A stretch of 64,000 bases of DNA. It comes from Candidatus Altiarchaeota archaeon. GTDB lineage: Archaea > Altiarchaeota > Altiarchaeia > IMC4 > SCGC-AAA252-I15. The notes beneath the pieces are model-generated. The model did no database searches and was not told the DNA's origin. It saw nothing but the letters and a program-made list of their open reading frames with translations. Below, in pieces: positions 19,348 through 59,611 of this stretch; the first letter of the stretch is position 1; each line of letters starts with the position of its first letter. Position numbers and translations under genes: made by a program. The stretch spans positions 11,828 to 75,827 of the forward strand of contig JAZDIN010000024.1 of the NCBI GenBank assembly GCA_043804895.1, given 5' to 3'.

Positions 19348-19449
19348 TACAAATACGCGAGTATTCTTACTCGCTTCTACCTCCTATCTGTTTTTTGCTT
19401 TTTGGCATTTTGAGCATATTTGGAATAGACCGCAGCCAGGCTGCGGGTG
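19345..19449 (-). repeat. Structured intergenic element, family 1 copy B
   Basis: CCGCAGCC-T-GGCTGCGG hairpin, GCTCAAAATGC..., GGAGGT, hairpin, ends TCGCGTATTTGTAATG on the permease start. Confidence 0.7.
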
Positions 19450-23586: not shown

Positions 23587-23747
23587 CGCCTCCGCAAGGA
23601 CTTGAACCTTGGACCACTCGATATCAGCAACCTGCCTGATTCCATCCTTTTTGAGCTTTATTTTCTTTTGGGGATGAAACCCTTTTCTTTTTTTAAAAGA
23701 AAAGGGGTTCTAACAGTCGAGCGCTCTACCAGCTGAGCTACAGAGGC
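23587..23747 (-). tRNA. tRNA-Asn(GTT) with 88-nt intron at 37/38 (intron 23623-23710)
   Basis: 5' exon GCCTCTGTAGCTCAG...CTGTTA; 3' exon ATCGAG...GTTCAAGTCC...GGAGGCG; relaxed bulge-helix-bulge. Confidence 0.92.
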
Positions 23748-24611: not shown

Positions 24612-25235
24612 ATGCCGTGGCGGAGGTTCATAAGGTGGTTTAAGGGCATATTCGGCAAGCGTAAGGTGATTCGCCTCGGTTTGTATGGGCCTCCGAATTC
24701 TGGGAAGACGACGCTTGCTAACAAGATTTCTGTTGATTGGACTGGTGAGCCTGTGGGGTCGGTGTCTGAGGTGCCGCATGAGACGCGTGAGGTGCAGAAG
24801 AAGGAGCATGTGACTGTGGAGTGCGATGGCAGGAAGATTGAGATGAACCTCTTGGACATGCCTGGGATTGCGACGAAGATAGATTTTGAGGAGTTCATCA
24901 AGTTCGGGTTGAGCAGGAGCGAGGCGCAGAAGAGGGCGAAGGAGGCGACGAAGGGCGTGATTGAGGCTATCAAGTGGCTTGAGAACGTCGACACTGCGTT
25001 GGTTGTGATGGACAGCAGCGAGGACCCTTACACGCAGGTTAACATCACTATAATCGGGAATCTTGAGGCTAGGAACATCCCGGTCATCATTGTGGCGAAC
25101 AAGATTGATTTGAAGAACGCGAAGCCTGAGAACATCAGGGAGGCGTTCCCGCAGCATCCTGTAGTTGGGGTGTCCGGGCTCAGGGGCGACCACATTGACG
25201 AGTTGTACAGGGCTATCGCGACGCATTCAAGGTAA
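24612..25235 (+). CDS. oapA: Era-like GTPase OapA
   Basis: GPPNSGKT, DMPG and NKID motifs; first of the GTPase/DUF2073/Zn-ribbon triad. Confidence 0.85.
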   Translation: MPWRRFIRWFKGIFGKRKVIRLGLYGPPNSGKTTLANKISVDWTGEPVGSVSEVPHETREVQKKEHVTVECDGRKIEMNLLDMPGIATKIDFEEFIKFGLSRSEAQKRAKEATKGVIEAIKWLENVDTALVVMDSSEDPYTQVNITIIGNLEARNIPVIIVANKIDLKNAKPENIREAFPQHPVVGVSGLRGDHIDELYRAIATHSR

Positions 25236-25237
25236 AG

Positions 25238-25621
25238 ATGGAGATTCAGATCGAATTCATCGGAGGGGATGTGTTGTCTGAGATGAGCACTGACGAGAAG
25301 ATGAGCTACATCCTAGAACATGTGAAAGATGATAAAATCCTGGTCATCGAGGAGGGTATGTCGCCGCTTGAGGAAAGCGCTCTCATAGAGGCTACGATGG
25401 CAAAGGTCACTAAGAAGTTCCCTGGCATTGAGGTGTCGACCCTGAGGGAGAAGACTGAGGAGGGCATCAGGGAGAAGCTCATCAGGATGCTTGGGGGCAG
25501 GACAGGCGGGCTGACTGTCATCGGGCCGTCGAAGATTATCAGACAGATTAAGAAGGACCCGAGGAGGATTACGATGCTCGCAGGCGACGAGGTTGTTGAG
25601 GAGAAGAAGAGGAAACAGTAA
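25238..25621 (+). CDS. oapB: DUF2073 family protein OapB
   Basis: LVIEEGMSPLEESALIEATM...FPGIE...LTVIGP. Confidence 0.82.
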   Translation: MEIQIEFIGGDVLSEMSTDEKMSYILEHVKDDKILVIEEGMSPLEESALIEATMAKVTKKFPGIEVSTLREKTEEGIREKLIRMLGGRTGGLTVIGPSKIIRQIKKDPRRITMLAGDEVVEEKKRKQ

Positions 25622-25672
25622 CCGCGGGGATACCTTCTGACTTTTTAGCCGCTGTTTTCAATTAATGTCTGT

Positions 25673-26053
25673 ATGCCACACAAGTGCGCCCGGTGTTCTG
25701 CAATCTACGACGAGAAGGCTAAGGAGCTTATCGTCGGGTGCGGGTGCGGCAGTAAGGTGTTCCTTTACCTGAGGGCTGACTATGCTGGTTCGAAGGAGGA
25801 TACTGTGAGGGTTCTGGAGGATAGGAGAGTAGATGAGAGGGACCTCAAGTGGCTTGACGACGAGTTCAAGGACACGCTCAGGGGGGAAGGTAAGACTGTG
25901 AGCTTGGACATCGAAAACGTACTCAGGATTGACGAAGGCAAGTACGAGCTGGACTTGAAGAGGCTGATGAGCGGAGAGCCCGTAGTCATAAAGGCTTCCG
26001 AAGGCGTCTATTACATTGACATAAAGTACGGTATGAAGCCTAAGAGGAAATAG
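25673..26053 (+). CDS. oapC: Zn-ribbon protein OapC (DUF2072)
   Basis: MPHKCARC...GCGCGSKVFLY; GKYELDL. Confidence 0.85.
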   Translation: MPHKCARCSAIYDEKAKELIVGCGCGSKVFLYLRADYAGSKEDTVRVLEDRRVDERDLKWLDDEFKDTLRGEGKTVSLDIENVLRIDEGKYELDLKRLMSGEPVVIKASEGVYYIDIKYGMKPKRK

Positions 26054-26175
26054 AGCGAATGACATGGGTTGTTGAACCTTGGCTTGTTGGAAATCAGCCA
26101 AATTTCTATGTCATTCGCTATATTCGATAGCAAATGTACATTGTCAAAAGTTCAAATACATTTGCTATCGTCTAT
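26050..26175 (+). repeat. Twin-hairpin structured element, family 2 copy 1
   Basis: Two 14-bp stems (26054-67/26106-19 and 26125-38/26157-70), ATATT linker, complementary loops TTGAAC/GTTCAA. Confidence 0.7.
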
Positions 26176-26211
26176 AGGTTCTTTTAATGCGAAAAATAAT
26201 AACATACTGCC

Positions 26212-27543
26212 ATGATACACCCAATCGAAGGCAGGTACGGCCGCAAGGAGGTTAAGGCCATCTTCGAGGAGGAGAACAAGCTCCAGAGGATGCTGGATGT
26301 TGAGGCTGCCCTCGCGAGGGCTCATGCTAGGGTAGGGGACATCCCGAAGAAGGACGGTAACGTCATAACGCTGAAGGCGAACGTCAAGCATGTGAAGTTG
26401 GAGGCTGTTAAGGAGATTGAGGCTGAGATAAATCATGACGTCATGGCTGTTGTTAAGGCGTTGAGTAAAGAGTGCGGGTATTCAGGCAAGTACGTTCATC
26501 TTGGGGCGACAAGCAACGACATCACGGACACTGCGTTGGCTTTGCAGCTTAAGGATTACATCAAGTATCTTGGAGAGGGTTTGGCTGAGTTGAGGGATGA
26601 GCTTGCCAGGAAGGCGAGGGAGCACATCAAGACCGTCTGCATCGGCAGGACCCACGCCCAACATGCTGTCCCGACCACGTACGGACTCAAGTTCGCGATA
26701 TACGCCATGGAGGTGGACAGGCACATCCAGAGGCTGGATGAGGTGAAGGGGAGGATTCTCGTTGGGAAGATGAGCGGAGCTGTTGGGACGCAGGCTGCGC
26801 TTGGTAGGAATGCTATCGCGATACAGGAGCATGTGATGGAGCAGTTGGGTCTCGGGTGCGTTGAGGTCTCAAATCAGGTGGTGCAGCGTGACAGGCACGC
26901 TGAGTTCATGATGCTATTAGCCCTCATAGCCGAGACCTTGAACAAGTTAGCGACTGAGGTGAGGAACCTCCAGAGGACTGAGATAGACGAGGTCAGGGAG
27001 GGGTTCGGTAAGAAGCAGGTCGGCTCCTCGACGATGCCGCATAAGATGAATCCGATACACGCTGAGAGGATTTGTGGGGTGTCTAGGGTCATCAAGGCGG
27101 ATGCTATGGCGTCGCTGGAGAACATCGCACTATGGCATGAGAGGGACCTCACGAACTCAAGCTGCGAGCGCATTATAATACCCGAATCATGCATACTCAC
27201 AGATTACATTCTGCGTTTGAGCATCGACCTTGTCAGGAATCTTGTCTTCAACATGGAGAACATCAGAAGGAACCTTGACATGACCCAGGGGAGAATCATG
27301 GCAGAGTCTGTGATGATGAGGATGGTTGGGAAGGGTTACGGCAGGCAGGAGGCCCATGAGGTCGTGAGGGAGTGCGCTCTCGAAAGCTACAGAAAGGGGA
27401 GGCCGTTGAAGGACATGCTGATGGGCAACGCTACTGTGAGGAAGCATCTGAGTGAGGCTGAGATTGACGATGCACTCAACCCCGGGAAGTACATAGGTAC
27501 TGCGGAGGAGCAGGTCAGAGCAGCCCTCAAAAAGTTTTCCTGA
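26212..27543 (+). CDS. purB: Adenylosuccinate lyase
   Basis: HLGATSND, GRTH and GSSTMPHKMNP signature. Confidence 0.96.
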   Translation: MIHPIEGRYGRKEVKAIFEEENKLQRMLDVEAALARAHARVGDIPKKDGNVITLKANVKHVKLEAVKEIEAEINHDVMAVVKALSKECGYSGKYVHLGATSNDITDTALALQLKDYIKYLGEGLAELRDELARKAREHIKTVCIGRTHAQHAVPTTYGLKFAIYAMEVDRHIQRLDEVKGRILVGKMSGAVGTQAALGRNAIAIQEHVMEQLGLGCVEVSNQVVQRDRHAEFMMLLALIAETLNKLATEVRNLQRTEIDEVREGFGKKQVGSSTMPHKMNPIHAERICGVSRVIKADAMASLENIALWHERDLTNSSCERIIIPESCILTDYILRLSIDLVRNLVFNMENIRRNLDMTQGRIMAESVMMRMVGKGYGRQEAHEVVRECALESYRKGRPLKDMLMGNATVRKHLSEAEIDDALNPGKYIGTAEEQVRAALKKFS

Positions 27544-28444
27544 TTAGGTCGTCTATCAGGTGGTCTGCGCTGAATCCGAAGTTCTTGCTGTCCTGGTTCA
27601 TCACAAGCCTGTGCCTGAGTATCGGGTGGGCTAGTTCGACAACGTCTTGTGTGGTTGCCTGCCGCCCCCCCATGAGGAATGCCCTGGTTTTCACAGCCTT
27701 TGTGTAAAGTACTGTCGCCCTCGTGCTAGCCCCTGCCACGACCTCTTTCCTAGCCCTTGACGCTGCTGCTAATGCGATTATGGAGTCTATGACCCCGTCG
27801 GGAACGTCGATTTCGGACTTTATGCGCTCCTGTATGGCGAGCACTTCAGCTGGTGTAAATAGTTTGCTCACCTTAACTGAGCTGACGCTCGACTTTATCG
27901 CCTCCCTCTCATCGTCAGGGGTGAGGTAGGTCATGTGCGATTTCAGTAGGAACCGGTCCTGCTGCGCTTCGGGCAGTGGGTAGGTGCCCTCACACTCTAT
28001 CGGGTTCTGGGTCGCGATGACGAAGAAGGGCTCTGGGAGGATGTGAGTCTGCCCGGCAACTGTCACGCTCCTTTCTGACATCGCCTCAAGGAACGCTGAC
28101 TGCGTCTTAGGTTGGGCGCGGTTTATCTCATCGACGAGTAGCACGTTGGTGAACAGCGGACCAGCCCCGAAGAACCTGCCTCCCAACTCCTCGTCAGAGT
28201 ACATGTCGCCTATGATGTCACGGGGAGCTAGGTCTGGGGTGCATTGTATCCGCTTGAATGCCATATCCATTATCTCAGCTATCGTCCTTGCCATCAGGGT
28301 CTTCCCGAGGCCTGGGGGGCTTTCGATGAGTATGTGCCCTGATGAGAGGATGCATATGAGTATGTCTTCTATGACGTCTTTGTTTCCGATTACCCTCCTT
28401 CCTATCTCCCTGCGCATGAGGTCTATCCTCTCGTGTTCCTTCAT
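27527..28444 (-). CDS. MoxR family AAA+ ATPase
   Basis: PGLGKT, RIQCTPDL, DEINRA, ATQNPIECEGTYPLPEAQQDRF; likely start MKEHE. Confidence 0.93.
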   Translation of the reverse strand: MKEHERIDLMRREIGRRVIGNKDVIEDILICILSSGHILIESPPGLGKTLMARTIAEIMDMAFKRIQCTPDLAPRDIIGDMYSDEELGGRFFGAGPLFTNVLLVDEINRAQPKTQSAFLEAMSERSVTVAGQTHILPEPFFVIATQNPIECEGTYPLPEAQQDRFLLKSHMTYLTPDDEREAIKSSVSSVKVSKLFTPAEVLAIQERIKSEIDVPDGVIDSIIALAAASRARKEVVAGASTRATVLYTKAVKTRAFLMGGRQATTQDVVELAHPILRHRLVMNQDSKNFGFSADHLIDDLIRKTF

Positions 28445-29151
28445 AGTATCACCTTCCTTGCCGTGACCCTCCATTCTGCGGAGTTCATGCAGGGTATCCC
28501 GTATTGTTTGCACGTGCGGCGTATGTTCTCCGAGTCGGAGAGGACTACGCTTGGAGTCTCCCTTGCGATTGCCACGCTCGCGTAGGGTGTGTCGTCGTTG
28601 TTGGCTTCCGCTTTGACGAACACCTGCGTCTTTGCGCCGCACACCTCCACCTCGCCCAATCCCTTCAAATCCAACGCTGAGCGAGCCTCAGGCCATATCT
28701 CACGAGGGACGCACACGAAACCGAACACCGTATGTAGCGCCTTAACGTCCTCGCAGGTCACGGCCTCGATGAAGTCCATCTCAGCTACCGCACTGCACGC
28801 TCCGAGCGCGATGCTATCATACTCCACATTCTTAGGTTCGGCCTTCCATTCCACTCTACACACTGAAGATGCACGGCTCCCAGGATTTTTTGGTGCTGTC
28901 CTCCTTTGATCGTTTCCTGTCGATTTTGATTTTTCGACCAACTGGTTTTTGATTGCCTGAGTCTCGTCGAGGTCGTTTGGTTGGTCGGCAGGCTGGCTTA
29001 GCACGAGCTGGGATATTTTAAAGCGGCAGGTTAGGTTCAGGCTGAGGGAGGCAACCGCCAATATGGCGAAGGATAGGATGAGTGTCCTCTCATCATGTCC
29101 GAGCATTCCCAAGTATCCTGCGAACTTCCCTACTAAGTCAGTCATCCCCAA
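28441..29151 (-). CDS. Membrane-anchored protein with putative C-terminal PIN-like domain
   Basis: N-terminal TM helix; YDS, VPREIWPE, NDDTPYASVA, VLSDSENIRRTCKQYGIP spacing as in PIN folds. Confidence 0.5.
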   Translation of the reverse strand: MGMTDLVGKFAGYLGMLGHDERTLILSFAILAVASLSLNLTCRFKISQLVLSQPADQPNDLDETQAIKNQLVEKSKSTGNDQRRTAPKNPGSRASSVCRVEWKAEPKNVEYDSIALGACSAVAEMDFIEAVTCEDVKALHTVFGFVCVPREIWPEARSALDLKGLGEVEVCGAKTQVFVKAEANNDDTPYASVAIARETPSVVLSDSENIRRTCKQYGIPCMNSAEWRVTARKVIL

Positions 29152-32100
29152 CCCTTGCCGGAAAAAGACTCCTCAGCGCGGACTTGACTTCATAAGCCAT
29201 GATGACGTTGCCGTATCCGCCTGCAACGAGAGCATCCCTTACGCCCTCAGTCAAGGCGATGAGTATGAGCGAGGTGTTCCCAATGGCAGCTTCGATTTTC
29301 CTTTGTAGCCCGTCCAATTCCTTCATCGTCAGGACCTCCACAGCTATCATCCTCCCGTTTGGTAGCTTTGCTGTGACGTCAGGCATCACCCGCTCATGCA
29401 TCCTGACTGTCATCTCATCGTCAGTTAGGCCGAGCCTGAATCTCACGCTCTCAAGGTACTTGAATATGAGGAACTTGCGCAGGAAGTGGATGGTATCCTC
29501 TGAGTCTGGCTTTTTGACGTAGTATACTTTCCTGTCATCCCGGCTTAATCCGATGTCCGCAACCTCCACGTACCCCTCACTCTTAAGCCTTTTCAGGTCC
29601 GCCTCCTTCAGGACTTCTCGCGGGAGGACCGGATCTCTGCTGGCGTCGAACATTAGGTTCGTTGTGGTCTGCGGTCGCGTCATCTCAAAAGTAATCCTCT
29701 CTTCCGGGCTGGTGGAGAGCATCCGCTTCTCGTACTCGCTTGCTAGGACGAATAGGGGAATCTTCACTGACGGCGTGAGCATGAGGACGTCGCCTGTGCC
29801 GGCGTTCTGGAGGAACATCCTCTGGTTCTCGGTCAAGGCGAAGCTATCGGCTATCATCCTCAACCCAACAGCCTCCTGCCTGAGGAGGAATTTCGTAGAT
29901 GTGTTGTTCAGTATCACATGGCCGCGCGGCATCCCTGTTGCGTCCTTTGACAGTAGGTCTTCGACGTTCTGGTCTATTATGACGACGCTCAGGTTCTCTT
30001 TCCTGCCGGTCCGGACTATGGGCCCGAGGTAGTCCTGGTTGTTCTCGAACACGCTCCATGCCTCGTCCACGAGTATCATCTTCCGCTTCTCCCTCCTGTG
30101 TTTGGCTACCCATGAGCGGATGTAGTCGAAGACGATGAAGAGGGCCATGGACCGCTCCAATGGCTTGAAGGCTGTGGTTGAGGATATGTCGAAGCAGACT
30201 ATGTTCTTGCCCTTAAGGTCCACCGTGGTCTCTTGGTTGAGGTATCTGAGGTCGCCTGAGACGAGGGGGGTGATGTAGCTTAGGAGGGCTTCAGCTGTGA
30301 CCTTCTTCCATGACTCAGCCCTGGAATTCGAATCTGAGGCGAACTGGTTGAGAGCCTCATAAACGCTTGTGAATGTCGGTGGCGTTTTACCCCAGGTGCT
30401 ATCATCGTCCGGATATATCCCCGCCTTCCTGTATGCGTTGTCTATCATCCTGTCCACTATGCCTGATGCTGCACCTGACAGCCGCTCGTCCATGTTCCCC
30501 CTGAGTATGTTGAAGAACGCCTTAACGCTACCCTTGCGGCCATCGTAGGTGTCGTTGCCGAGGTCGAATATGTTGATTGTCGACTTTGAGTCGTGACTGA
30601 GCCGTATCACCTGTCCGCCCATCTTCTCAACCAGCTTCCCGTATTCCCCCTGGGGGTCTATGACGAACATGTCGACGTCGTGCATGGCTTCGGAGAGGAA
30701 GAGCTTTTTCACGAGGAAGGACTTCCCGGAGCCTGAGCTTCCGAGCACCAGTATGTGGGGGTTAGGTTGCGTGAACACATCCAGTAGCACCGGTATGCCG
30801 TTGAGCTGGTTGTATCCTACGACGACTGCTCCGTCGCCTGCGTCCGCCAGGCAGCTGAGTATGAACGGGTAGGAGTCCCTGACCGCGCTTGAGGGGAATA
30901 GCCTGTCGCGGCGCTCCCCCAGCTTGTCCTCAGCCAGCGGGTAGCAGCTTTTCAATGCGTCCTCCATCTCCCAGTTAGCGACCCTCACCTGCGCGTTCAT
31001 CCCCTCCAACACGTCCTTGATTCGCATCACAGCCAAGTCGAGTTCCTTCTGCCCGTAGGCTTTGACGTTAACGTACAGCGCGACGTCGAAGCACTTCTCC
31101 TCGTCCCTTGATACACGGTTCAGAAGTTCCTTCACCTTCTGGAGGTTCACCCTGTCCTTCTCGGAGACTAGGAGGCATTCACGCTCCCTTGTCGTCACGT
31201 CAGTCTCGAGCTTCGTAATCTCATGCTGGAGGTAGTCGACGCTTGTCTTCTGGCTCAGGGGATGCATGTGGAAGACTATGTCAAAGTCTATGGGCTGCCT
31301 TATCAGCTTCGTCAGCCAACCGGGGTGGACGACAGCCGGGAACCGGACCGTGAACAGCACCCTGTGGAGTTTCTCCACCTCAGCATGGCTCTTGTGGAAG
31401 TCGAGTGAGGGGGGCATAAGCTGCTCAACAACGAATGATTTGCGGTCTGATGTGTTGCGGACGTAGTCAAGGCCGGCCTGCTCGAATCTCGCCTGCAGGC
31501 GCTCATCGTACATGGGGGCGAACGGATCCAATGAGTTTCCGAATCTCTTGAGCATCTCTTTCGCCTCTGACATCGCCTCCATGCCGTTGTGGAAGGTTAG
31601 TGGGCTGAACGCGCCTGAAGTGAGTTTGAACCTCGGGTTGTAGAAGTTGGCGTAGAACCTTATCAGGTCTTCTGTCTTAAGCCTCTCGCAGTCTATGCCT
31701 GAGTCCCTTAGGCTTGCCATCAGGTTTCTCGTCTTAGCATCAAGGTCCACCATCGCCTTCTTCAGCTGCCCACCCATGGGCTGGGTGATGATGATGTAGT
31801 AGTCGCGGTCAGTCACAGTCTTTGAGGTGACGACGCCGCGCAGGAAATCTGCGAAGTGTTCGAAGTAGCTCATGCGCTCGGTTTTTCCGCCAAGAAGCAC
31901 CTTCTCCTTCAGCCTCTGCAGGTAGCCTTCGACGTCTATCTCCGTCGATGACATGATTATCTGGATGTTGGTGCTGAGCTCATGGAGGAAGGTTCCGTAT
32001 CCTGCAAGCACCTTCTCTATGTCAGATTCGCTGAGGCTTGCCAAGTCCTTCGGCATCACCTTCACAGCTGACAGGAGTCGGTGGTCGGAGGTGAACACGG

Positions 32101-32404
32101 TGTCGCAGTCGATGTCATCGACGCCGATGAATTCCCGCATCTTCTTCGTGTTCCACAGGAGGCGTTTCCTGCCGCTTGCGAACCGAAGCCACAGGTATGT
32201 TTTTTCGTCGATTCCGAAGAATGCTATGCCGGCGTAGGCGAATATGTACAGTAGGCCATATGAGAGGACGATTATGGGCTGGTAGCCCCGGAATGCTAGT
32301 ATGATGCCTGGCACTGCTAGTGCGAGCATTATGGCGCTTTGTGTGAACGTGAGGTTGCCTAGGAATTTCTCCTTGTATTGTGAGGTAGCAAATGTCTCGA
32401 CCAT
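29138..32404 (-). CDS. VirB4-like T4SS ATPase with N-terminal PrgI/VirB3-like TM module and C-terminal PD-(D/E)XK-like domain
   Basis: EKFLGNLTFTQ plus two TM helices; GSSGSGKS, IDPQGEY, VDEAW, GRK...DQ; C-terminal H...PDV...IAVEV. Confidence 0.85.
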   Translation of the reverse strand: MVETFATSQYKEKFLGNLTFTQSAIMLALAVPGIILAFRGYQPIIVLSYGLLYIFAYAGIAFFGIDEKTYLWLRFASGRKRLLWNTKKMREFIGVDDIDCDTVFTSDHRLLSAVKVMPKDLASLSESDIEKVLAGYGTFLHELSTNIQIIMSSTEIDVEGYLQRLKEKVLLGGKTERMSYFEHFADFLRGVVTSKTVTDRDYYIIITQPMGGQLKKAMVDLDAKTRNLMASLRDSGIDCERLKTEDLIRFYANFYNPRFKLTSGAFSPLTFHNGMEAMSEAKEMLKRFGNSLDPFAPMYDERLQARFEQAGLDYVRNTSDRKSFVVEQLMPPSLDFHKSHAEVEKLHRVLFTVRFPAVVHPGWLTKLIRQPIDFDIVFHMHPLSQKTSVDYLQHEITKLETDVTTRERECLLVSEKDRVNLQKVKELLNRVSRDEEKCFDVALYVNVKAYGQKELDLAVMRIKDVLEGMNAQVRVANWEMEDALKSCYPLAEDKLGERRDRLFPSSAVRDSYPFILSCLADAGDGAVVVGYNQLNGIPVLLDVFTQPNPHILVLGSSGSGKSFLVKKLFLSEAMHDVDMFVIDPQGEYGKLVEKMGGQVIRLSHDSKSTINIFDLGNDTYDGRKGSVKAFFNILRGNMDERLSGAASGIVDRMIDNAYRKAGIYPDDDSTWGKTPPTFTSVYEALNQFASDSNSRAESWKKVTAEALLSYITPLVSGDLRYLNQETTVDLKGKNIVCFDISSTTAFKPLERSMALFIVFDYIRSWVAKHRREKRKMILVDEAWSVFENNQDYLGPIVRTGRKENLSVVIIDQNVEDLLSKDATGMPRGHVILNNTSTKFLLRQEAVGLRMIADSFALTENQRMFLQNAGTGDVLMLTPSVKIPLFVLASEYEKRMLSTSPEERITFEMTRPQTTTNLMFDASRDPVLPREVLKEADLKRLKSEGYVEVADIGLSRDDRKVYYVKKPDSEDTIHFLRKFLIFKYLESVRFRLGLTDDEMTVRMHERVMPDVTAKLPNGRMIAVEVLTMKELDGLQRKIEAAIGNTSLILIALTEGVRDALVAGGYGNVIMAYEVKSALRSLFPARVGDD

Positions 32405-32473
32405 CCAACCACCAGAGTATTCTGGTTGGTATCGGGTTAAAAGACAGTATATTAAAGGGTAGTAATACGGCAG

Positions 32474-32935
32474 TCACTTGGGTCTTTCGAGCTCTATCCC
32501 ATGCTTCTCCTTCACGACGTTCAAAACCACCATCGTATACGTCCTCTCAACGTTCTCCATCGCGTTGAGCTTCTTAACCAGCACGTTGAGGGCGTCACGG
32601 TCCTTGAACTTAGCGACCACAATGGCATCATACTCTCCTGTAACGTCATATACAGCAGTGACATTCTCCTCTTTGGATATCTTCTCCTCGATGTCAGGCA
32701 GACGGCCACCGGACGCTATAACCCCTATGACTGCAGTCAGGTCGTAGCCGAGCTTGCTGTAGTCTATGTCTGTGATGAAATTCTTTATGACTCCAAGCTC
32801 CCTGAGCTTGCTCACCCTGTTGTACACGGTCCCCTCCGCGACCTTCAGCTTCTCAGCTATCTCACGGAAGCTCCGCCTCCCATCGTACTGAAGCTCCTTC
32901 ACAAGCAGCATATCCAGCTCGTCTATCTTAGCCAT
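32474..32935 (-). CDS. Lrp/AsnC family transcriptional regulator
   Basis: IDELD...DGRRSFREIA HTH; VTGEYD. Confidence 0.95.
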   Translation of the reverse strand: MAKIDELDMLLVKELQYDGRRSFREIAEKLKVAEGTVYNRVSKLRELGVIKNFITDIDYSKLGYDLTAVIGVIASGGRLPDIEEKISKEENVTAVYDVTGEYDAIVVAKFKDRDALNVLVKKLNAMENVERTYTMVVLNVVKEKHGIELERPK

Positions 32936-32968
32936 CCAGATAATCCATCCCCTTCCAGGTAAAAAAGC

Positions 32969-33739
32969 TCATGCAACCTGGCTGACAATCAAGAGCAAAC
33001 CCACAAACCAGCAGTAGTAGGCGAAAACGTGGAACCTCCCCTCAAGTATCGTCTTCCAAATGAGCTTCAGGGAGAAGTAGCCGACGATGGCTGAGACTGC
33101 GAAACCAACGAATGCAATCGTGGGATTCAACCCGGACGCCATAAAATCCCCAGCATCCAAAGCCACCGCCCCGAATATGACAGGTATGGACATCAGGAAG
33201 GAGAATCTCGCGGCAGCCTCCCTCTTCACCCCCAACATCAGCCCACAACTTATGGTTGAGCCGCTCCTTGAGACGCCAGGAACGATTGAAACCGCCTGCA
33301 TCAGGCCTATCATGAACGCCTTAACCCCCCCTATCCTGTTTGACCCCTCACGCCCCTTGCTTACGAAAAGTAGAAGCCCAGTAAACAGCAAGCCGCCTGC
33401 AACGACATGGAGGCTGCTAAACAGCGATTCTAGGAAGTCCTTGTAGAGGAAACCGACAAGCCCTGCTGGGACGGTAGCCAAAACCACGTAAAGTGCAAGC
33501 TTGCCATCGTCTGACCTGAAGCCGCCACTCAGTATGGAGCTGGCAATCCTGGACAGGTCAGACCTGAGGAAAAACACAACGGATAGGAGAGTCCCGAAAT
33601 GGAGCAATACGTCAAATGATACGGGGACTGTAACGCCCAGAACCTTCTGGAATATTACCAGATGGCCTGAGCTTGAGATTGGAAGCCACTCGGTGACACC
33701 CTGAACAAAAGCCAATATGACAGCCTGAACGTAGTCCAC
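32969..33739 (-). CDS. uppP: Undecaprenyl-diphosphate phosphatase (BacA)
   Basis: QGVTEWLPISSSGH and PGVSRSGST motifs. Confidence 0.94.
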   Translation of the reverse strand: MDYVQAVILAFVQGVTEWLPISSSGHLVIFQKVLGVTVPVSFDVLLHFGTLLSVVFFLRSDLSRIASSILSGGFRSDDGKLALYVVLATVPAGLVGFLYKDFLESLFSSLHVVAGGLLFTGLLLFVSKGREGSNRIGGVKAFMIGLMQAVSIVPGVSRSGSTISCGLMLGVKREAAARFSFLMSIPVIFGAVALDAGDFMASGLNPTIAFVGFAVSAIVGYFSLKLIWKTILEGRFHVFAYYCWFVGLLLIVSQVA

Positions 33740-33791
33740 CTTAGATAATCACTATAATTCTTTTTAAACGCCCCGACCATAACTTACTCAC

Positions 33792-35081
33792 ATGAGGATA
33801 TCGGTAGTTGGCTCAGGATACGTCGGACTGATAACCGCTGCAGGCTTCGCAGAGAAGGCACACAACGTCCTATGCGTCGACATTGACGAGAGGAAAGTCG
33901 ACATGATAAACTCCAAAAAGCCCCCAATATACGAGAAGGGCTTGGCGGAGATACTGGAGCACGTCGTCCCAGGAAAGCTGAAGGCCACCCTCGACCTTGA
34001 AGGAAGTGTACTCGCCTCCGAGGTCACGTTTATCTGCGTCGGAACCCCATCAGACGACGACGGCAGCATCAACCTAGAGTATGTGAGGGAAGTGAGCAAG
34101 GAGATAGGCCGCATACTCGGGAGGAAGAGGGGATACCACGTTGTCGTCGTCAAAAGCACCATCATACCAGGCTCCACAGAGAAGCACGTTATACCTGCCC
34201 TGGAGAGGGAGTCAGGCAAAAAGGCAGGGAAGGATTTCGGGGTGGTGATGAATCCCGAGTTCCTGCGCGAGGGGGTCGCGGTCGAGGACTTCATGAACCC
34301 TGACAGGATAGTGATAGGAAGCATCGACCAGAAGGGAGGGGACATCATAGAGAGCATATACTATGAGTTCAAAAGCCCGGTGCTGCGGGTGAACCTGAAG
34401 ACTGCGGAGATGATAAAATACACATCGAATGCGCTATTGGCTACTAAGATAAGTTTCATAAACGAGGTCGGCAACGTCTGCAAGAAACTGGAAGTAGACG
34501 TGTATGACGTTGCGAAAGGCGTCGGACTAGACCACCGCGCCGGACCCCACTTCCTCAACGCAGGCCCCGGCTTCGGAGGCAGCTGCTTCCCGAAGGACGT
34601 GAAGGCTCTTGTACACAAGGCAATGGAATTGGGAGTCAAACCACGGCTTCTGGAAAGCGTCCTTGAAGTGAACGAACAACAACCTAAGACAATGCTGAAG
34701 CTTCTGAAAACAAAATACAAGCTTAAGGGTATGAAGGTGACAGTACTCGGCCTCGCCTTCAAGGCTGGGACTGACGATGTCAGGGAGAGCCCTGCACTGC
34801 CCATAGTAAGGGGGCTTCTGAAGGAAGGCGCCACCGTCACAGCCTATGACCCGCAGGCGATGGAAAACTGCGCTCAGGTGCTGAAAGGCAAAATAAGGTA
34901 CGCCCCAACGCTGAAGGAAGCCCTAGAAACAAGCGAACTGGCAATCATACTAACTGAGTGGGATGAGTTCAAAACCCTTGACTTCTCAGGCATGAAAAAG
35001 AAGCGCGTCTTCGACTCAAGGCACATACTCAAGAGGGACCTGGCGCCAGCCGACATCGAGTATGAGGGACTCTGCTGGTGA
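33792..35081 (+). CDS. ugd: UDP-glucose 6-dehydrogenase
   Basis: GSGYVG, NPEFLREG, GFGGSCFPKD. Confidence 0.94.
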   Translation: MRISVVGSGYVGLITAAGFAEKAHNVLCVDIDERKVDMINSKKPPIYEKGLAEILEHVVPGKLKATLDLEGSVLASEVTFICVGTPSDDDGSINLEYVREVSKEIGRILGRKRGYHVVVVKSTIIPGSTEKHVIPALERESGKKAGKDFGVVMNPEFLREGVAVEDFMNPDRIVIGSIDQKGGDIIESIYYEFKSPVLRVNLKTAEMIKYTSNALLATKISFINEVGNVCKKLEVDVYDVAKGVGLDHRAGPHFLNAGPGFGGSCFPKDVKALVHKAMELGVKPRLLESVLEVNEQQPKTMLKLLKTKYKLKGMKVTVLGLAFKAGTDDVRESPALPIVRGLLKEGATVTAYDPQAMENCAQVLKGKIRYAPTLKEALETSELAIILTEWDEFKTLDFSGMKKKRVFDSRHILKRDLAPADIEYEGLCW

Positions 35082-35112
35082 GACAACCGACCTTTTTTAT
35101 TACCAGTCTAAT

Positions 35113-35229
35113 ATTATAGCTGAGGGCATAACTCTTTAGACTTCGTAGGGGGTATATTAGACTTTGTGCCCTCAGATATATTCGAGAGCATAGAATCCAA
35201 GTCAAGAAGGTTATGCTCTCGACTATAAT
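35113..35229 (+). repeat. Twin-hairpin structured element, family 2 copy 2
   Basis: 12-bp stems 35120-31/35164-75 and 35182-93/35211-22; closing ATTATAG/CTATAAT; loops GACTT/AAGTC. Confidence 0.7.
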
Positions 35230-35237
35230 CCTAACAG

Positions 35238-36125
35238 GTGGTTAAGATGAAGGCTGTTATTCCGGCTGCGGGGTTAGGGACTAGGTTCCTTCCCGCCACA
35301 AAGAGCCAACCGAAGGAGATGCTACCCCTCGTAGACAAACCAAGCATACAGTTCGTCGTGGAGGAGTGCGTCGCCTCAGGAATAGACGACATACTCATCA
35401 TAACAGGCCGCGGGAAACGCGCAATCGAAGACCACTTCGACAGGAGCGTCGAACTGGAAGAGGTTCTAGACCACAGCGGCAAAAACGATCTGAAGAGGAT
35501 GGTAGAGTGCATCGCCGACATGGTTGACATACACTACATCCGCCAGAAGGAGGCGCTCGGACTCGGCCATGCTATTCTAAGGGCAAAAAAGCACGTCGGG
35601 GACGAGCCTTTCGCTGTCTTACTTGGCGACGACATCGTGTTCTCGAAGAAGCCTTGCACTAGGCAGCTGATAGACTTGTACGGGAAATACAAGGCGTCGA
35701 TAATCGCTGTGGAGAAGGTGCCTAAGGAGAGGATATCAAGCTATGGTGTGATAGGTGGCACAGAGACTGAAAGATGCCTTTGCAGGATAACCGACCTTGT
35801 GGAGAAACCAAAGCCGCAGGATGCGCCGTCCAACCTCGGGATAATAGGCCGTTACATGCTAACGCCCGCGATATTCGACCATCTGAAGAGGACGAAGAAG
35901 GGCGCCGGAGGGGAGATACAGTTGACCGACGGACTGAAAAGCCTCAACAGGAGGGAGGCGATGTACGGGTGGCAGTTTGAGGGGGTCAGATACGACCTAG
36001 GGAACAAGTTCGAGTACATGAAGGCTTCCATAGAGTACGGCACGATACACCCGGAAGTGGGACCGAAACTGAAGCACTACCTTGCGAACGTGAACCTGAA
36101 GGAGATTGAGGAGAAGTTCAAATGA
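35238..36125 (+). CDS. galU: UTP-glucose-1-phosphate uridylyltransferase
   Basis: [33 protein letters not shown]. Confidence 0.95.
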
Positions 36126-40415: not shown

Positions 40416-41433
40416 CCTTAACGAACTCCTTATTCTCCTCTACAGTCCCGGCGCTGACCCTAATGTACTCCCCTTTGAATCCTTTCAGTTTCCCGAACTC
40501 CCTGACTATTATTTTCCGTTCAACCATCCTGTCGAAGAACTCCTGGGAAGTCATGGGCGTGACGTCGGCGAATATGAAGTTGCTGTCAGATGGGTAAGGC
40601 TTGAACTTTGAGGACAGAGCCTTGTAGATGGACTCCCTGCCAGCCACAATCTTATTCACGCACCATCTCATGTAACCGAGGTCATCCAACGCAGCTACAG
40701 ATGCAGCTTCAGCGAGGCTCGATAGGTTGAACGGAAGCTTCACCTTCAACATGGCCCGTACCACAATAGGGTCTGCGACCGCATAGCCTACCCTCAGACC
40801 AGCTAGTGCGAACGCCTTGCTCAAAGTCCGAAGTACGATGAGGTTAGGGTAATCCCTGACCCAGCCGACCCGGCTCTTGCCTGAGAACTCATAGTATGCC
40901 TCATCCAACACAACAACCTTCCCATCGTCAAGAACGGCCTTGACATCGCTGTCCGGGATGCTCAGCCCCGTCGGATTGTTCGGGCTGCAAAGGAATGCGA
41001 GCCTGCAATCGCCCGCCTCCTTTAGGAATCTCCTAGCATCGAAGGTGAAGTCGCCCCCGAGCTTTACTGGAACGTATTTTTCCCCCATCGCGCCCGCTGC
41101 TATCGGGTATTCCGCAAAGGACGGGTAACTGCCTGCGACCGGTCCTTCGAAGACTTTCACCAGCATGTCCATAAGCTCATCTGAGCCGTTCCCGAGTGCG
41201 ATGTTCTCCTTCCCTACGCCCGCGTATTCCGCTACCTTCCCCCTGACTTCGTCGCTCCTGTAGGGGTAAAGCTGGGTTCGCCCGCTCCACTCCCGCAGGA
41301 CCTCCACGACCTTCGGGCTTGGGCCAAAGTTGTTCTCATTGCTTGCAAGCTTGATGAATCCTTCCCTGAACTCGCCTGGAACATAGTCTGGAAGGGATAG
41401 TACATTCGGCCTGATACAGTCCTTGACGTCCAT
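40399..41433 (-). CDS. hisC: Histidinol-phosphate aminotransferase
   Basis: KLASNEN, GNGSDE, DEAY, RTLSKAFALAGLRVG. Confidence 0.93.
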   Translation of the reverse strand: MDVKDCIRPNVLSLPDYVPGEFREGFIKLASNENNFGPSPKVVEVLREWSGRTQLYPYRSDEVRGKVAEYAGVGKENIALGNGSDELMDMLVKVFEGPVAGSYPSFAEYPIAAGAMGEKYVPVKLGGDFTFDARRFLKEAGDCRLAFLCSPNNPTGLSIPDSDVKAVLDDGKVVVLDEAYYEFSGKSRVGWVRDYPNLIVLRTLSKAFALAGLRVGYAVADPIVVRAMLKVKLPFNLSSLAEAASVAALDDLGYMRWCVNKIVAGRESIYKALSSKFKPYPSDSNFIFADVTPMTSQEFFDRMVERKIIVREFGKLKGFKGEYIRVSAGTVEENKEFVKAISSL

Positions 41434-50846: not shown

Positions 50847-50894
50847 TTAACATTTGCTATCAGGTATGGTGCTAGAATGAAGCAAAATCATGCC

Positions 50895-54434: not shown

Positions 54435-54532
54435 CATACTCCGCCTTAAAGGGCGGAGTATTACTTATAAACACGCACTATGGACAACATAGTATACTGG
54501 GGTGAAAACGCAATATTCGCGTGTTTGTAATG
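54435..54532 (+). repeat. Structured intergenic element, family 1 copy C
   Basis: ATACTCCGCC-TTAAAG-GGCGGAGTAT hairpin; ends TTCGCGTGTTTGTAATG on the CYTH gene start. Confidence 0.65.
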
Positions 54533-55021
54533 AGGGTTGAAGTCGAACTGAAGGCGCCTTGTAAAGGAGCTGAATCCAAGGTCAAAGCTCTTGGCGGGGT
54601 GTTCGTTAAATCTGAGAAGCAGGTTGACACGTACTTCACACACCCCTGCCGGGACTTCAGGAGGACTGATGAGGCGCTGAGGATAAGGAGGACTGACAGA
54701 CTCACTATAACGTATAAGGGGCCTAAGAGGAAGTCGAAGATGAAGATGAGGGAGGAGGTCGAATTCCCTGCCACAGAGGATGCCTTCAAACTCCTTAAGC
54801 GGTTGGGATTCAAGAAGGCCTTCACAATCAGGAAAAGACGCAGGATTTACAAACTTGGCAGGCTGACCTTGTGCTGTGACTTCGTTGAAGGCCTCGGAGA
54901 ATACGTGGAGGTTGAGTCGTTAGACCCCCGGGACAAAAGTAGGATATTGGGGGTCTTCGAGAAGCTCAAAGTCAAGGATAAGGCGACCACGAACTCCTAC
55001 AGCGATATTTTAGGTATCTGA
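54530..55021 (+). CDS. cyaB: CYTH family protein (class IV adenylate cyclase-like)
   Basis: EVELK, QVDTYF, ALRIR, TYKGP, LGEYVEVE. Confidence 0.88.
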   Translation: MRVEVELKAPCKGAESKVKALGGVFVKSEKQVDTYFTHPCRDFRRTDEALRIRRTDRLTITYKGPKRKSKMKMREEVEFPATEDAFKLLKRLGFKKAFTIRKRRRIYKLGRLTLCCDFVEGLGEYVEVESLDPRDKSRILGVFEKLKVKDKATTNSYSDILGI

Positions 55022-56444: not shown

Positions 56445-56562
56445 TATGATCCGGATAGAGCAGACAGACACCATAGGTGTTCATGCACGATTTGAAGGCT
56501 GTGGTCTGCTTTATCTTGGATCAGCGTCAGGGTTAATAACTCCGCCAGAAAATAGTATAGTG

Positions 56563-57828: not shown

Positions 57829-57864
57829 CAGGACTTAAATCCTCATTCGCTATAATCCTCCAAT

Positions 57865-58773: not shown

Positions 58774-58821
58774 GCTGAGTTATTTAACCCTTTAACGCCT
58801 TATTATATTTTCGCCCACAAT

Positions 58822-58895
58822 GGGACCGTGGGGTAGTTTGGCCATCCTTCCAGCTTTGGGAGCTGGTGACCTGCGTTCAAATCGCAGCGGTCCCA
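58822..58895 (+). tRNA. tRNA-Pro(TGG)
   Basis: GGGACCG/CGGTCCC acceptor stem; CCAGC-TTTGGGA-GCTGG anticodon arm. Confidence 0.95.
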
Positions 58896-58930
58896 TACAG
58901 CCTTATTATTACATATTCCAATTCTTTCTT

Positions 58931-59611
58931 ATGGACCGTCTGTCTACTGGTGTTACGGGTTTGGATGAGCTTATTGAAGGCGGTCTGAAGCCTAAGAGCA
59001 TTAACTTGGTTGTGGGGGAGGCTGGGAGCGGTAAGTCGACTTTCGCTACGCATTTCCTGTTGGCTGGGGCGAAGGCGGGAGAGGTGGGGCTTTACGTGTC
59101 GGTTGAGGAGTCTAAGGAGAAGTTCTTCGACAACATGAGGAAGTTCGGATTCGACCTGGCCACTCTCGAGGCTGAGAAGAAGTTGGTTTTCCACAAAGCA
59201 AACACCCCAGAGCTGAGGGATTTCCTGGACAGGGGGATTATCAGCTTCGAACAGTACTTCAAGACTTACCCCATAAAGAGGGTTGTCATAGACAGCGCCA
59301 CGGTCTTGATGCTCTCATACAACGCTGAGACATCACAGAGAAGTGCCCTCCTCACGTTGTTCGAATTGCTCGGTAAATTGGGGGTTACCGTTCTTGTCAC
59401 TAGCGAATCCGAGGACAACCAGGCCCGTTTCGGGTTAGAGTATATAGTCGACAGCATATTCAGACTTTACTACCGCAAGGTCGGGCAGGAGAGGGTCCGA
59501 ACACTTGAGGTGTTCAAGATGAGGGGGACAGACCATAGCAAGCAGGAGATGGTCTACAGACTCGGCAAGGGTGGCATAATGTTATACCCGAGCGAGAAGA
59601 TTCTGGTGTAG
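58931..59611 (+). CDS. Single-domain KaiC/RAD55 family ATPase
   Basis: STGVTGLD, GEAGSGKS, RVVIDS, KMRGT. Confidence 0.9.
   Translation: MDRLSTGVTGLDELIEGGLKPKSINLVVGEAGSGKSTFATHFLLAGAKAGEVGLYVSVEESKEKFFDNMRKFGFDLATLEAEKKLVFHKANTPELRDFLDRGIISFEQYFKTYPIKRVVIDSATVLMLSYNAETSQRSALLTLFELLGKLGVTVLVTSESEDNQARFGLEYIVDSIFRLYYRKVGQERVRTLEVFKMRGTDHSKQEMVYRLGKGGIMLYPSEKILV

Follow-up and report, generated by a model that had tools for sequence, protein, structure and literature searches.

What are the two palindromic loci that precede purB and galU in the genome of a member of Candidatus Altiarchaeota? Within the stretch of 64,000 nucleotides that was analysed here (GenBank assembly GCA_043804895.1, contig JAZDIN010000024.1, positions 11,828 to 75,827; hereafter the window, whose own numbering is used throughout), each of these loci holds two adjacent hairpins. 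An initial annotation, made from the sequence alone, had left two answers side by side: an unknown non-coding RNA (ncRNA) or switch whose topology combines kissing loops with a three-way junction, or folded single-stranded DNA (ssDNA) that serves as a substrate for recombination or belongs to a miniature inverted-repeat transposable element (MITE). The answer favoured here, with moderate confidence, is that both loci are copies of a lineage-specific foldback, a MITE-like intergenic repeat made from four alternating copies of one unit.

Anatomy of the two loci

The twin-hairpin anatomy of both loci is real and unusual for the window. Adjacent inverted repeats are found at both places where the initial annotation had put its paired hairpins (26050-26175 and 35113-35229), and the flanking genes are purB and galU, as it had also stated. 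The two copies and their hairpins are the following:

26049-26177, no strand: copy 1, the complete element with both hairpins (129 nt, GC 0.36), flanked by the OapC stop codon and the purB promoter
26049-26124: copy 1 hairpin 1, arms 26049-26065/26108-26124 (17 nt, 94%), with a 42-nt loop holding two small sub-hairpins
26118-26177: copy 1 hairpin 2, arms 26118-26138/26157-26177 (21 nt, 90%), whose base is the conserved motif common to copy 2
35113-35229, no strand: copy 2, the complete element (117 nt, GC 0.39), flanked by the T6 run that follows ugd and by the start of galU
35115-35180: copy 2 hairpin 1, arms 35115-35131/35164-35180 (17 nt, 88%)
35177-35227: copy 2 hairpin 2, arms 35177-35192/35212-35227 (16 nt, 94%)

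A hairpin census of the 64 kb (stem of at least 12, at most one mismatch, loop of 3-60) returned 14 hairpins, only five of which have at least 13 matched bp. Four of these five strongest hairpins are those of copies 1 and 2, and the fifth sits inside a 161-nt tRNA match. The sequences TATATTCGAKAGCA and TGCTMTCGWCTATA have exact matches in the window at the two copies only, and the same holds for TATATTCGA[T/G]AGCA, the motif at the junction, and for TGCT[A/C]TCG[T/A]CTATA, which mirrors it. No open reading frame (ORF) of at least 60 amino acids lies wholly within either copy.

A single repeat unit and a nested inverted repeat

Set in one orientation, the arms of the four hairpins, eight in all, vary around a single unit, TATA[G/T]-N-YGA-NRG-CA-NA, which begins with TATA, measures about 18 nt (or about 18-30 nt) and occurs four times per copy in an orientation that alternates right-left-right-left. 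Local scores between units reach 20-30 for eight cross-hairpin pairs, against a 99th percentile of 20 in the null, and the similarity of the arms continues into the loops. The outer arms carry TATAG and the inner arms TATAT, the two inner ones overlapping in a central ATATAT node; each element holds three TATA-like nodes, two outer and one central. The outer pair is what had been described as a closing stem; the predicted minimum-free-energy structure of the plus strand includes this stem in copy 2 and lacks it in copy 1. The nodes can also extend either hairpin.

The symmetry of the element extends beyond its hairpins. In copy 2, the 31-nt outer helix that had been claimed (24 of 31 Watson-Crick, 28 of 31 with G-U) was recovered exactly, positions 35113-35143 pairing with 35199-35229 through 24 Watson-Crick and four G-U pairs, and the left end, aligned with the reverse complement of its counterpart on the right, matches in 25 of 31 columns, a value that none of 2000 shuffles equalled. 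The outer arms of copy 1 are weaker, with 18 Watson-Crick and two G-U pairs of 31 in an ungapped comparison and 33 of 2000 shuffles as good, while for the inner-arm comparison of the copies 34 and 17 of 2000 shuffles did as well. Terminal inverted repeats of the kind expected of a MITE are present in both copies.

This outer repeat also accounts for the loop-loop complementarity on which the kissing-loop proposal was based. Complementary words as long as those observed arise in 12% of loop shuffles for copy 1 (a 6-mer, P = 0.12) and in 37% for copy 2 (a 5-mer, P = 0.37), which is the level of chance, and a cross-copy control likewise yields a 5-mer. In copy 2, GACTT/AAGTC are the innermost 5 bp of the 31-nt outer helix, and in copy 1, TTGAAC/GTTCAA fall within the gapped outer alignment. 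The complementary loops are the inner end of the outer inverted repeat of about 31 nt and lie in register with it. Such nested dyad symmetry of one unit favours a mobile element, since an RNA gene has no need of it and the symmetry creates competing folds.

How the two copies are related

Hairpin 2 of copy 1 and hairpin 2 of copy 2 are identical in 35 of 57 aligned columns, including the base of the stem and the loop sequence GTCAA, and their units score 24 and 22 between copies against a null 99th percentile of 20; on this alignment, hairpin 2 is homologous between the copies. For hairpin 1, similarity between the copies was not detectable (local scores of 8-16 against a null 95th percentile of 17), and its units have almost nothing in common beyond TATA. 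The differing stems of hairpin 1 are consequently different palindromes and not a case of covariation. In the stem of hairpin 2 that can be aligned, 11 of the 12 pairs are invariant and one is changed on both sides, a result that 245 of 500 shuffles match and that, coming from two sequences, has little power. The description of the loci as covarying copies therefore finds no support against shuffles, the other differing stems being not alignable. What has been kept is the sequence of the stem base itself, while the loops (apart from GTCAA in hairpin 2) and hairpin 1 have not.

A repeated 18-nt unit with a conserved core, TATA..YGA..GCA, adjoining promoters in a window where other palindromes abut AT boxes and start codons, could also be read as an array of four protein-binding sites, either operator-like or architectural, in which the unit is the site and the hairpins are incidental. 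This explanation is considered very unlikely. The unit itself is not palindromic, its spacing varies between 16 and 42 nt, the distance to the start codon is 35 nt in one case and 19 nt in the other, and purB and galU are functionally unrelated; the lack of common sequence among the hairpin 1 units of the two copies, described above, is likewise difficult to reconcile with a shared binding site.

The case for a structured RNA

One rival explanation is a cis-acting structured RNA or small ncRNA that would form a three-way junction on the plus strand and serve purB and galU, or else the genes upstream, as a leader, an insulator or a stabiliser. The predicted folds are strong. When each strand of each copy was compared with 200 shuffles, the fold z-scores were -6.25 (plus) and -8.16 (minus) for copy 1 and -5.29 (plus) and -4.58 (minus) for copy 2, with no shuffle folding as well in any of the four cases. 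Both copies are oriented with plus-strand genes and stand directly upstream of a start codon; the loop GTCAA of hairpin 2 is common to them, and the predicted structure of copy 2 includes the closing stem. By reading, copy 2 has two G-U pairs at the inner ends of its stems on the plus strand only, which slightly favours that strand. In addition, the T6 run before copy 2 and the AGGTGG before galU would fit a leader that starts near the left end of the element.

Against these points, neither strand folds consistently better, and in copy 1 it is the minus strand that does so; the roughly equal folding of both strands was counted for the MITE-like reading over an RNA. A search with Rfam 15 at gathering thresholds gave three matches in the window (SSU rRNA and two tRNAs), none of them at either copy, and at E<=10 there were eight weak matches near copy 1, the best with 19.6 bits against a threshold of 90, and none near copy 2. 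Compensatory changes beyond the level of shuffles, a strand-specific fold and a conserved unpaired core, the features by which a structured RNA would be recognised, were not found in this comparison of two sequences, which has little power. Moreover, a well-placed AT box that belongs to purB itself lies downstream of the element, and a ligand common to purB and galU is not obvious. Together with loops whose complementarity belongs to the outer repeat, a hairpin 1 that cannot be aligned and a closing stem absent from the predicted structure of copy 1, these observations make the RNA unlikely, and the switch with a three-way junction and kissing loops that had been proposed is not supported.

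Other structured candidates were tried and rejected. Hammerhead or other ribozymes and H/ACA and C/D guide RNAs gave no Rfam match, and their boxes were not seen by reading; an integron attC site was judged by reading only, its ends lacking the R''/R' core pair.

Fragments and searches for further copies

Besides the two full copies, parts of the arms of copy 1 are found at two other places in the window:

50850-50861, plus strand: solo 12-nt fragment ACATTTGCTATC, matching without mismatch the right arm of hairpin 2 in copy 1 and located 3 nt after the DNA ligase stop codon
57843-57857, plus strand: solo fragment, of which 57843-57854 (12 nt) match exactly hairpin 1 of copy 1 in its right arm and node; 14 of 15 when extended

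The first of them, whose recurrence had been noticed before and is confirmed, is followed by a degenerate node (AGGTATGG versus GTCTATAGG). The second continues as CTATAATCCT, where ten bases, 57850-57859, are the same as those at the right end of copy 2 and in the adjoining flank. When the 36 intergenic regions of the window were all compared with one another, with dinucleotide-preserving shuffles of copy 1 as the null, exact 12-mers of copy 1 occurred in two other regions, whereas the shuffles have a mean of 0.05 and none of 2000 reaches the observed count. Copy 2 has no exact 12-mer in the other intergenic regions of the window. The sequence ATATTCG was discarded as a signal because its 22 occurrences in the window, on both strands, make it unspecific. 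A unit-like match, TATAGTCGACAGCATAT at 59443-59459, agrees in 15 of 16 positions with the right arm of copy 2 hairpin 2; it lies in a KaiC-like coding region, encodes a conserved protein segment and is probably due to chance.

Beyond the window, the hairpin-2 pattern TATATTCGANAGCAN{10,40}TGCTNTCG was scanned over 185,579 species genomes (596 Gb, both strands), which gave 22 loci in bacteria and metagenome-assembled genomes (MAGs), none of them from Altiarchaeota. About 33 matches are estimated to arise by chance in that scan (20 fixed bases, 31 gap lengths, 596 Gb), and the two archaeal loci inspected among the 22 (L008 and L010) are coding-like and lack the hairpin pair. No relative was thus found, and the failure to recover the pattern from Altiarchaeota among the species representatives fits a taxon-specific repeat. 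A blastn search of both copies against plasmids and phages had no match except four 31-nt matches to cyanophage gp6 (E 0.4).

Flanking genes and signs of insertion

The four flanking genes are:

25673-26053, plus strand: OapC-family gene, with a native stop codon TAG (26051-26053) whose three bases open the core of the element
26212-27543, plus strand: purB, adenylosuccinate lyase, with the A/T box TTTTAATG at 26182-26189 (-30..-23), outside the element
33792-35081, plus strand: ugd, coding for UDP-glucose 6-dehydrogenase, with a T6 run behind it at 35093-35098
35247-36125, plus strand: galU, with ATG at 35247, an ORF that opens at GTG 35238, and AGGTGG at 35236-35241

The intergenic regions with the copies measure 158 and 166 nt and have a GC of 0.35-0.39, while most co-directional ones in the window have 30-100 nt. 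Copy 1 is preceded by an OapB/OapC gene pair; a GTPase gene and then the OapB and OapC genes (Pfam 'origin-associated proteins') span 24612-26053. The named best homologues of OapC are proteins from Candidatus Altiarchaeota or Altiarchaeales MAGs with 58-74% identity. Its C-terminus, KPKRK, is the same in three of 13 aligned homologues (P0007, P0009 and P0010), and two others end in KPKKK at equal length, which indicates that the native stop codon is intact.

In-silico removal of 26051-26174 gives AAA-TAG-GTTC, with the same stop codon and with TTTTAATG at -30..-23 of the purB ATG. By reading, an A/T octamer stands at about -30..-22 before other genes of the window as well, for example those starting at 33792 (plus), 33739 (minus), 47032 (plus), 46998 (minus), 55618 (minus), 17089 (plus) and 41433 (minus). 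For copy 2, whose right node CTATAAT lies at -24..-18 of galU, removal of 35117-35227 gives TCTAATATTAATCCTAA, which, again by reading, agrees in 13 of 17 positions with the AT box, and the bases after it, of the minus-strand gene that starts at 41433, the distance to the start codon being equal within one base. These site reconstructions make insertion plausible, although they are no proof of it. The sequences that border the copies are TA|TAG...CTA|TA for copy 2 and AA|TAG...CTA|TA for copy 1.

A different kind of mobility has to be weighed at this point, namely that of an ssDNA hairpin element of the IS200/IS605 kind (PATE) or a REP/RAYT-like palindrome, which a Y1 transposase would recognise in its folded single-stranded form and insert beside a fixed short target, ATAG, with no duplication. 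PATEs are short non-coding derivatives of IS200/IS605 that consist of the two hairpin ends of the insertion sequence (IS) and are known in archaea, and the ends of IS608-type elements and PATEs are short subterminal imperfect palindromes with no terminal inverted repeat. The present hairpins differ from this definition in being terminal, with stems of 13-21 bp and loops of 16-42 nt, and in carrying a 31-nt terminal inverted repeat, and no Y1_Tnp, OrfB or TnpB family match was obtained among the 65 ORFs of the window scanned with Pfam and/or NCBIfam. Such an origin is regarded as highly doubtful, even though several observations would suit it: pairing is kept while the stem sequence differs, a clear target-site duplication is not seen, ATAG precedes both copies and the ends read CTATA(G/A), and both copies have the same orientation. 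A precedent exists in another phylum, where repetitive intergenic RNAs of Thermococcales are related to the ends of orphan OrfB elements (PMC3124441).

It could also be asked whether the copies are att-like direct-repeat boundaries of an inserted 9-kb segment (26178-35112), given that they lie 9 kb apart in direct orientation and that the segment carries a VirB4/CedB-like ATPase. This is extremely improbable. The sequence common to both boundaries has only 14 nt with one mismatch, the segment carries the housekeeping genes purB, uppP and ugd, and no integrase was found among the ORFs scanned. The GC of the segment (0.505-0.563) is no different from that of its flanks, and the 9-kb island was rejected for this reason.

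Proposed origin of the element

Of the two answers offered initially, the MITE or folded-DNA substrate fits better than the RNA with regard to its nested symmetry, its insertion-like context, the arm fragments and the MITE-rich phylum of the host. The additional intergenic palindromes of the window (5453-5493, 54435-54533 and 56447-56523), which are unrelated to the twin-hairpin copies, were also counted for the MITE-like reading. Each locus would be a non-coding, AT-rich foldback of 117-129 bp, in which the inner units share the ATATAT node and the outer units form the terminal inverted repeat of about 31 nt. It may represent a MITE-like element that is not autonomous, or two mini-foldbacks in tandem, and a transposase supplied in trans would have placed it at TA-rich gene-boundary sites, the oapC stop codon in one case and the AT box of the galU promoter in the other, and both copies would by now be old and diverged. 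Under this insertion model, the empty junctions would have been AAATAGGTTC between oapC and purB and TCTAATATTAATCC between ugd and galU. Transposition itself, the TA target and any effect on expression are the parts of this scenario that we infer from sequence. As examples of such effects, the galU AT box may owe one of its halves to the right node, or a long leader may now be driven by the left flank.

Several findings weigh against the MITE-like reading. The divergence between the copies is very high, and, unusually for a MITE, it is the internal hairpin 2 that is best kept, not the outer ends. The 64 kb hold no more than two full copies; a covariance model of hairpin 2 retrieved from the window just the two hairpin-2 copies (80 and 69 bits) and no third, and a hidden Markov model of the unit had, beyond the eight arms, its best match in the KaiC-like coding region at 59443-59459 (E 0.45). 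No autonomous partner appears, as none of the 65 ORFs scanned matched transposase, integrase or TnpB families. Because TATA and CTATAG are self-complementary, a target duplication is inseparable from an extension of the inverted repeat, and there is no unambiguous target-site duplication; a TA target is also at odds with the left flank of copy 1, which is AA. The reconstructed galU site implies a leaderless start and leaves a good AGGTGG at -11..-6 unexplained. Finally, both copies lie in the same orientation just upstream of a plus-strand gene, which could reflect function and not chance.

A bolder proposal, which at present seems quite unlikely, is that the foldback targets TA-rich gene-boundary signals and rewires transcription starts in Altiarchaeota, or else that the conserved hairpin 2 has become a domesticated regulatory hairpin of RNA or DNA ahead of purB and galU. 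With TATA-like nodes at the ends and in the middle, insertion would split a promoter while supplying new halves of an AT box. If it is true that such elements enter AT boxes and stop codons, transcription units may have been reshaped in this manner, as the reconstructed sequences would allow. If the loci are simply MITE-like, they would be an ordinary feature of a MITE-rich phylum and a matter of annotation, not to be called an RNA gene or a riboswitch, and they could serve as a marker for the comparison of strains or populations of uncultivated Altiarchaeota.

Other features of the window

Some further observations concern regions outside the two copies. No IS was detected within the window.

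54435-54533: a different adjacent hairpin pair between a fibrillarin gene and a CYTH-domain gene (fold z -7.47, none of 200 shuffles as good); one hairpin has an 11-bp stem and a 4-nt loop, and the other combines a 42-nt loop with the arms TTATAAACACGC/GCGTGTTTGTAA, of which the right one abuts the likely ATG at 54530
56447-56523: a long hairpin, GATCCGGATAGAGCAGAC.../...GTCTGCTTTATCTTGGATC, upstream of hisD and beginning 5 nt past a stop codon (fold z -4.78); it has ATAGAGC in common with the first arm of copy 1
5453-5493: a palindrome, ATAGTATATCTG/CGGATATACTAT, flanked by a TTTATATA box and by the start codon of the minus-strand gene that begins at 5456
23587-23747: an Rfam tRNA match of 161 nt (54.2 bits) with a long insertion, probably an intron, that holds the strong hairpin 23676-23710; it was not reported by ARAGORN
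58821-58896: a tRNA-Pro called by ARAGORN that overlaps the start of the KaiC-like ORF; it has no Rfam match and is probably a false positive
27527-32404, minus strand, between the copies: a MoxR-type AAA ATPase and a VirB4/CedB-like ATPase of 1088 amino acids (NF045971, E 8e-73); no further gene for conjugation or of a mobile element was seen nearby in the ORF family scans

The best match between intergenic regions of the window joins 19344-19365 with 54512-54533 (22 nt, 91%, on opposite strands), and may mark another repeat family.

Comparison with known systems

Some architectural parallels are bacterial. Correia (NEMIS) elements of Neisseria and ERIC (IRU) elements of enterobacteria are imperfect palindromes, 100-155 bp in length, that lie between genes and have long terminal inverted repeats. 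The ends of Correia elements start with TATAG and sit at TA, and such elements can carry or disrupt parts of promoters and fold in transcripts. These families number tens to hundreds of near-identical copies, in contrast to the two diverged copies and two fragments present here in 64 kb, and the likeness is one of general description.

Among archaea, the sRk48/52 and sRkB/C RNAs of Pyrococcus abyssi are multi-copy structured intergenic ncRNAs of about 130 nt that have been linked to orphan OrfB ends, and some of their copies lie just upstream of genes (PMC3124441). These RNAs differ from the present element in having K-turns, a conserved P1 sequence, mapped transcripts and promoters, and they belong to another phylum (PMC3124441).

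Compared with archaeal MITEs, the element departs in having termini less kept than its internal hairpin, in its nested four-arm palindrome, and in occurring with no clear target duplication or partner IS. Candidatus Altiarchaeum hamiconexum is reported to have the highest MITE density among archaea, with 146 per Mb, and the median size of archaeal MITEs is 104 bp (PMC11602168), while Altiarchaeota show the highest median IS content of any phylum, 0.65% (PMC13343696). By description, then, the twin-hairpin element resembles the MITEs reported for archaea and for Altiarchaeota in its size, its terminal inverted repeats, its intergenic site, its non-coding nature, its taxon specificity and the phylum of its host (PMC11602168).

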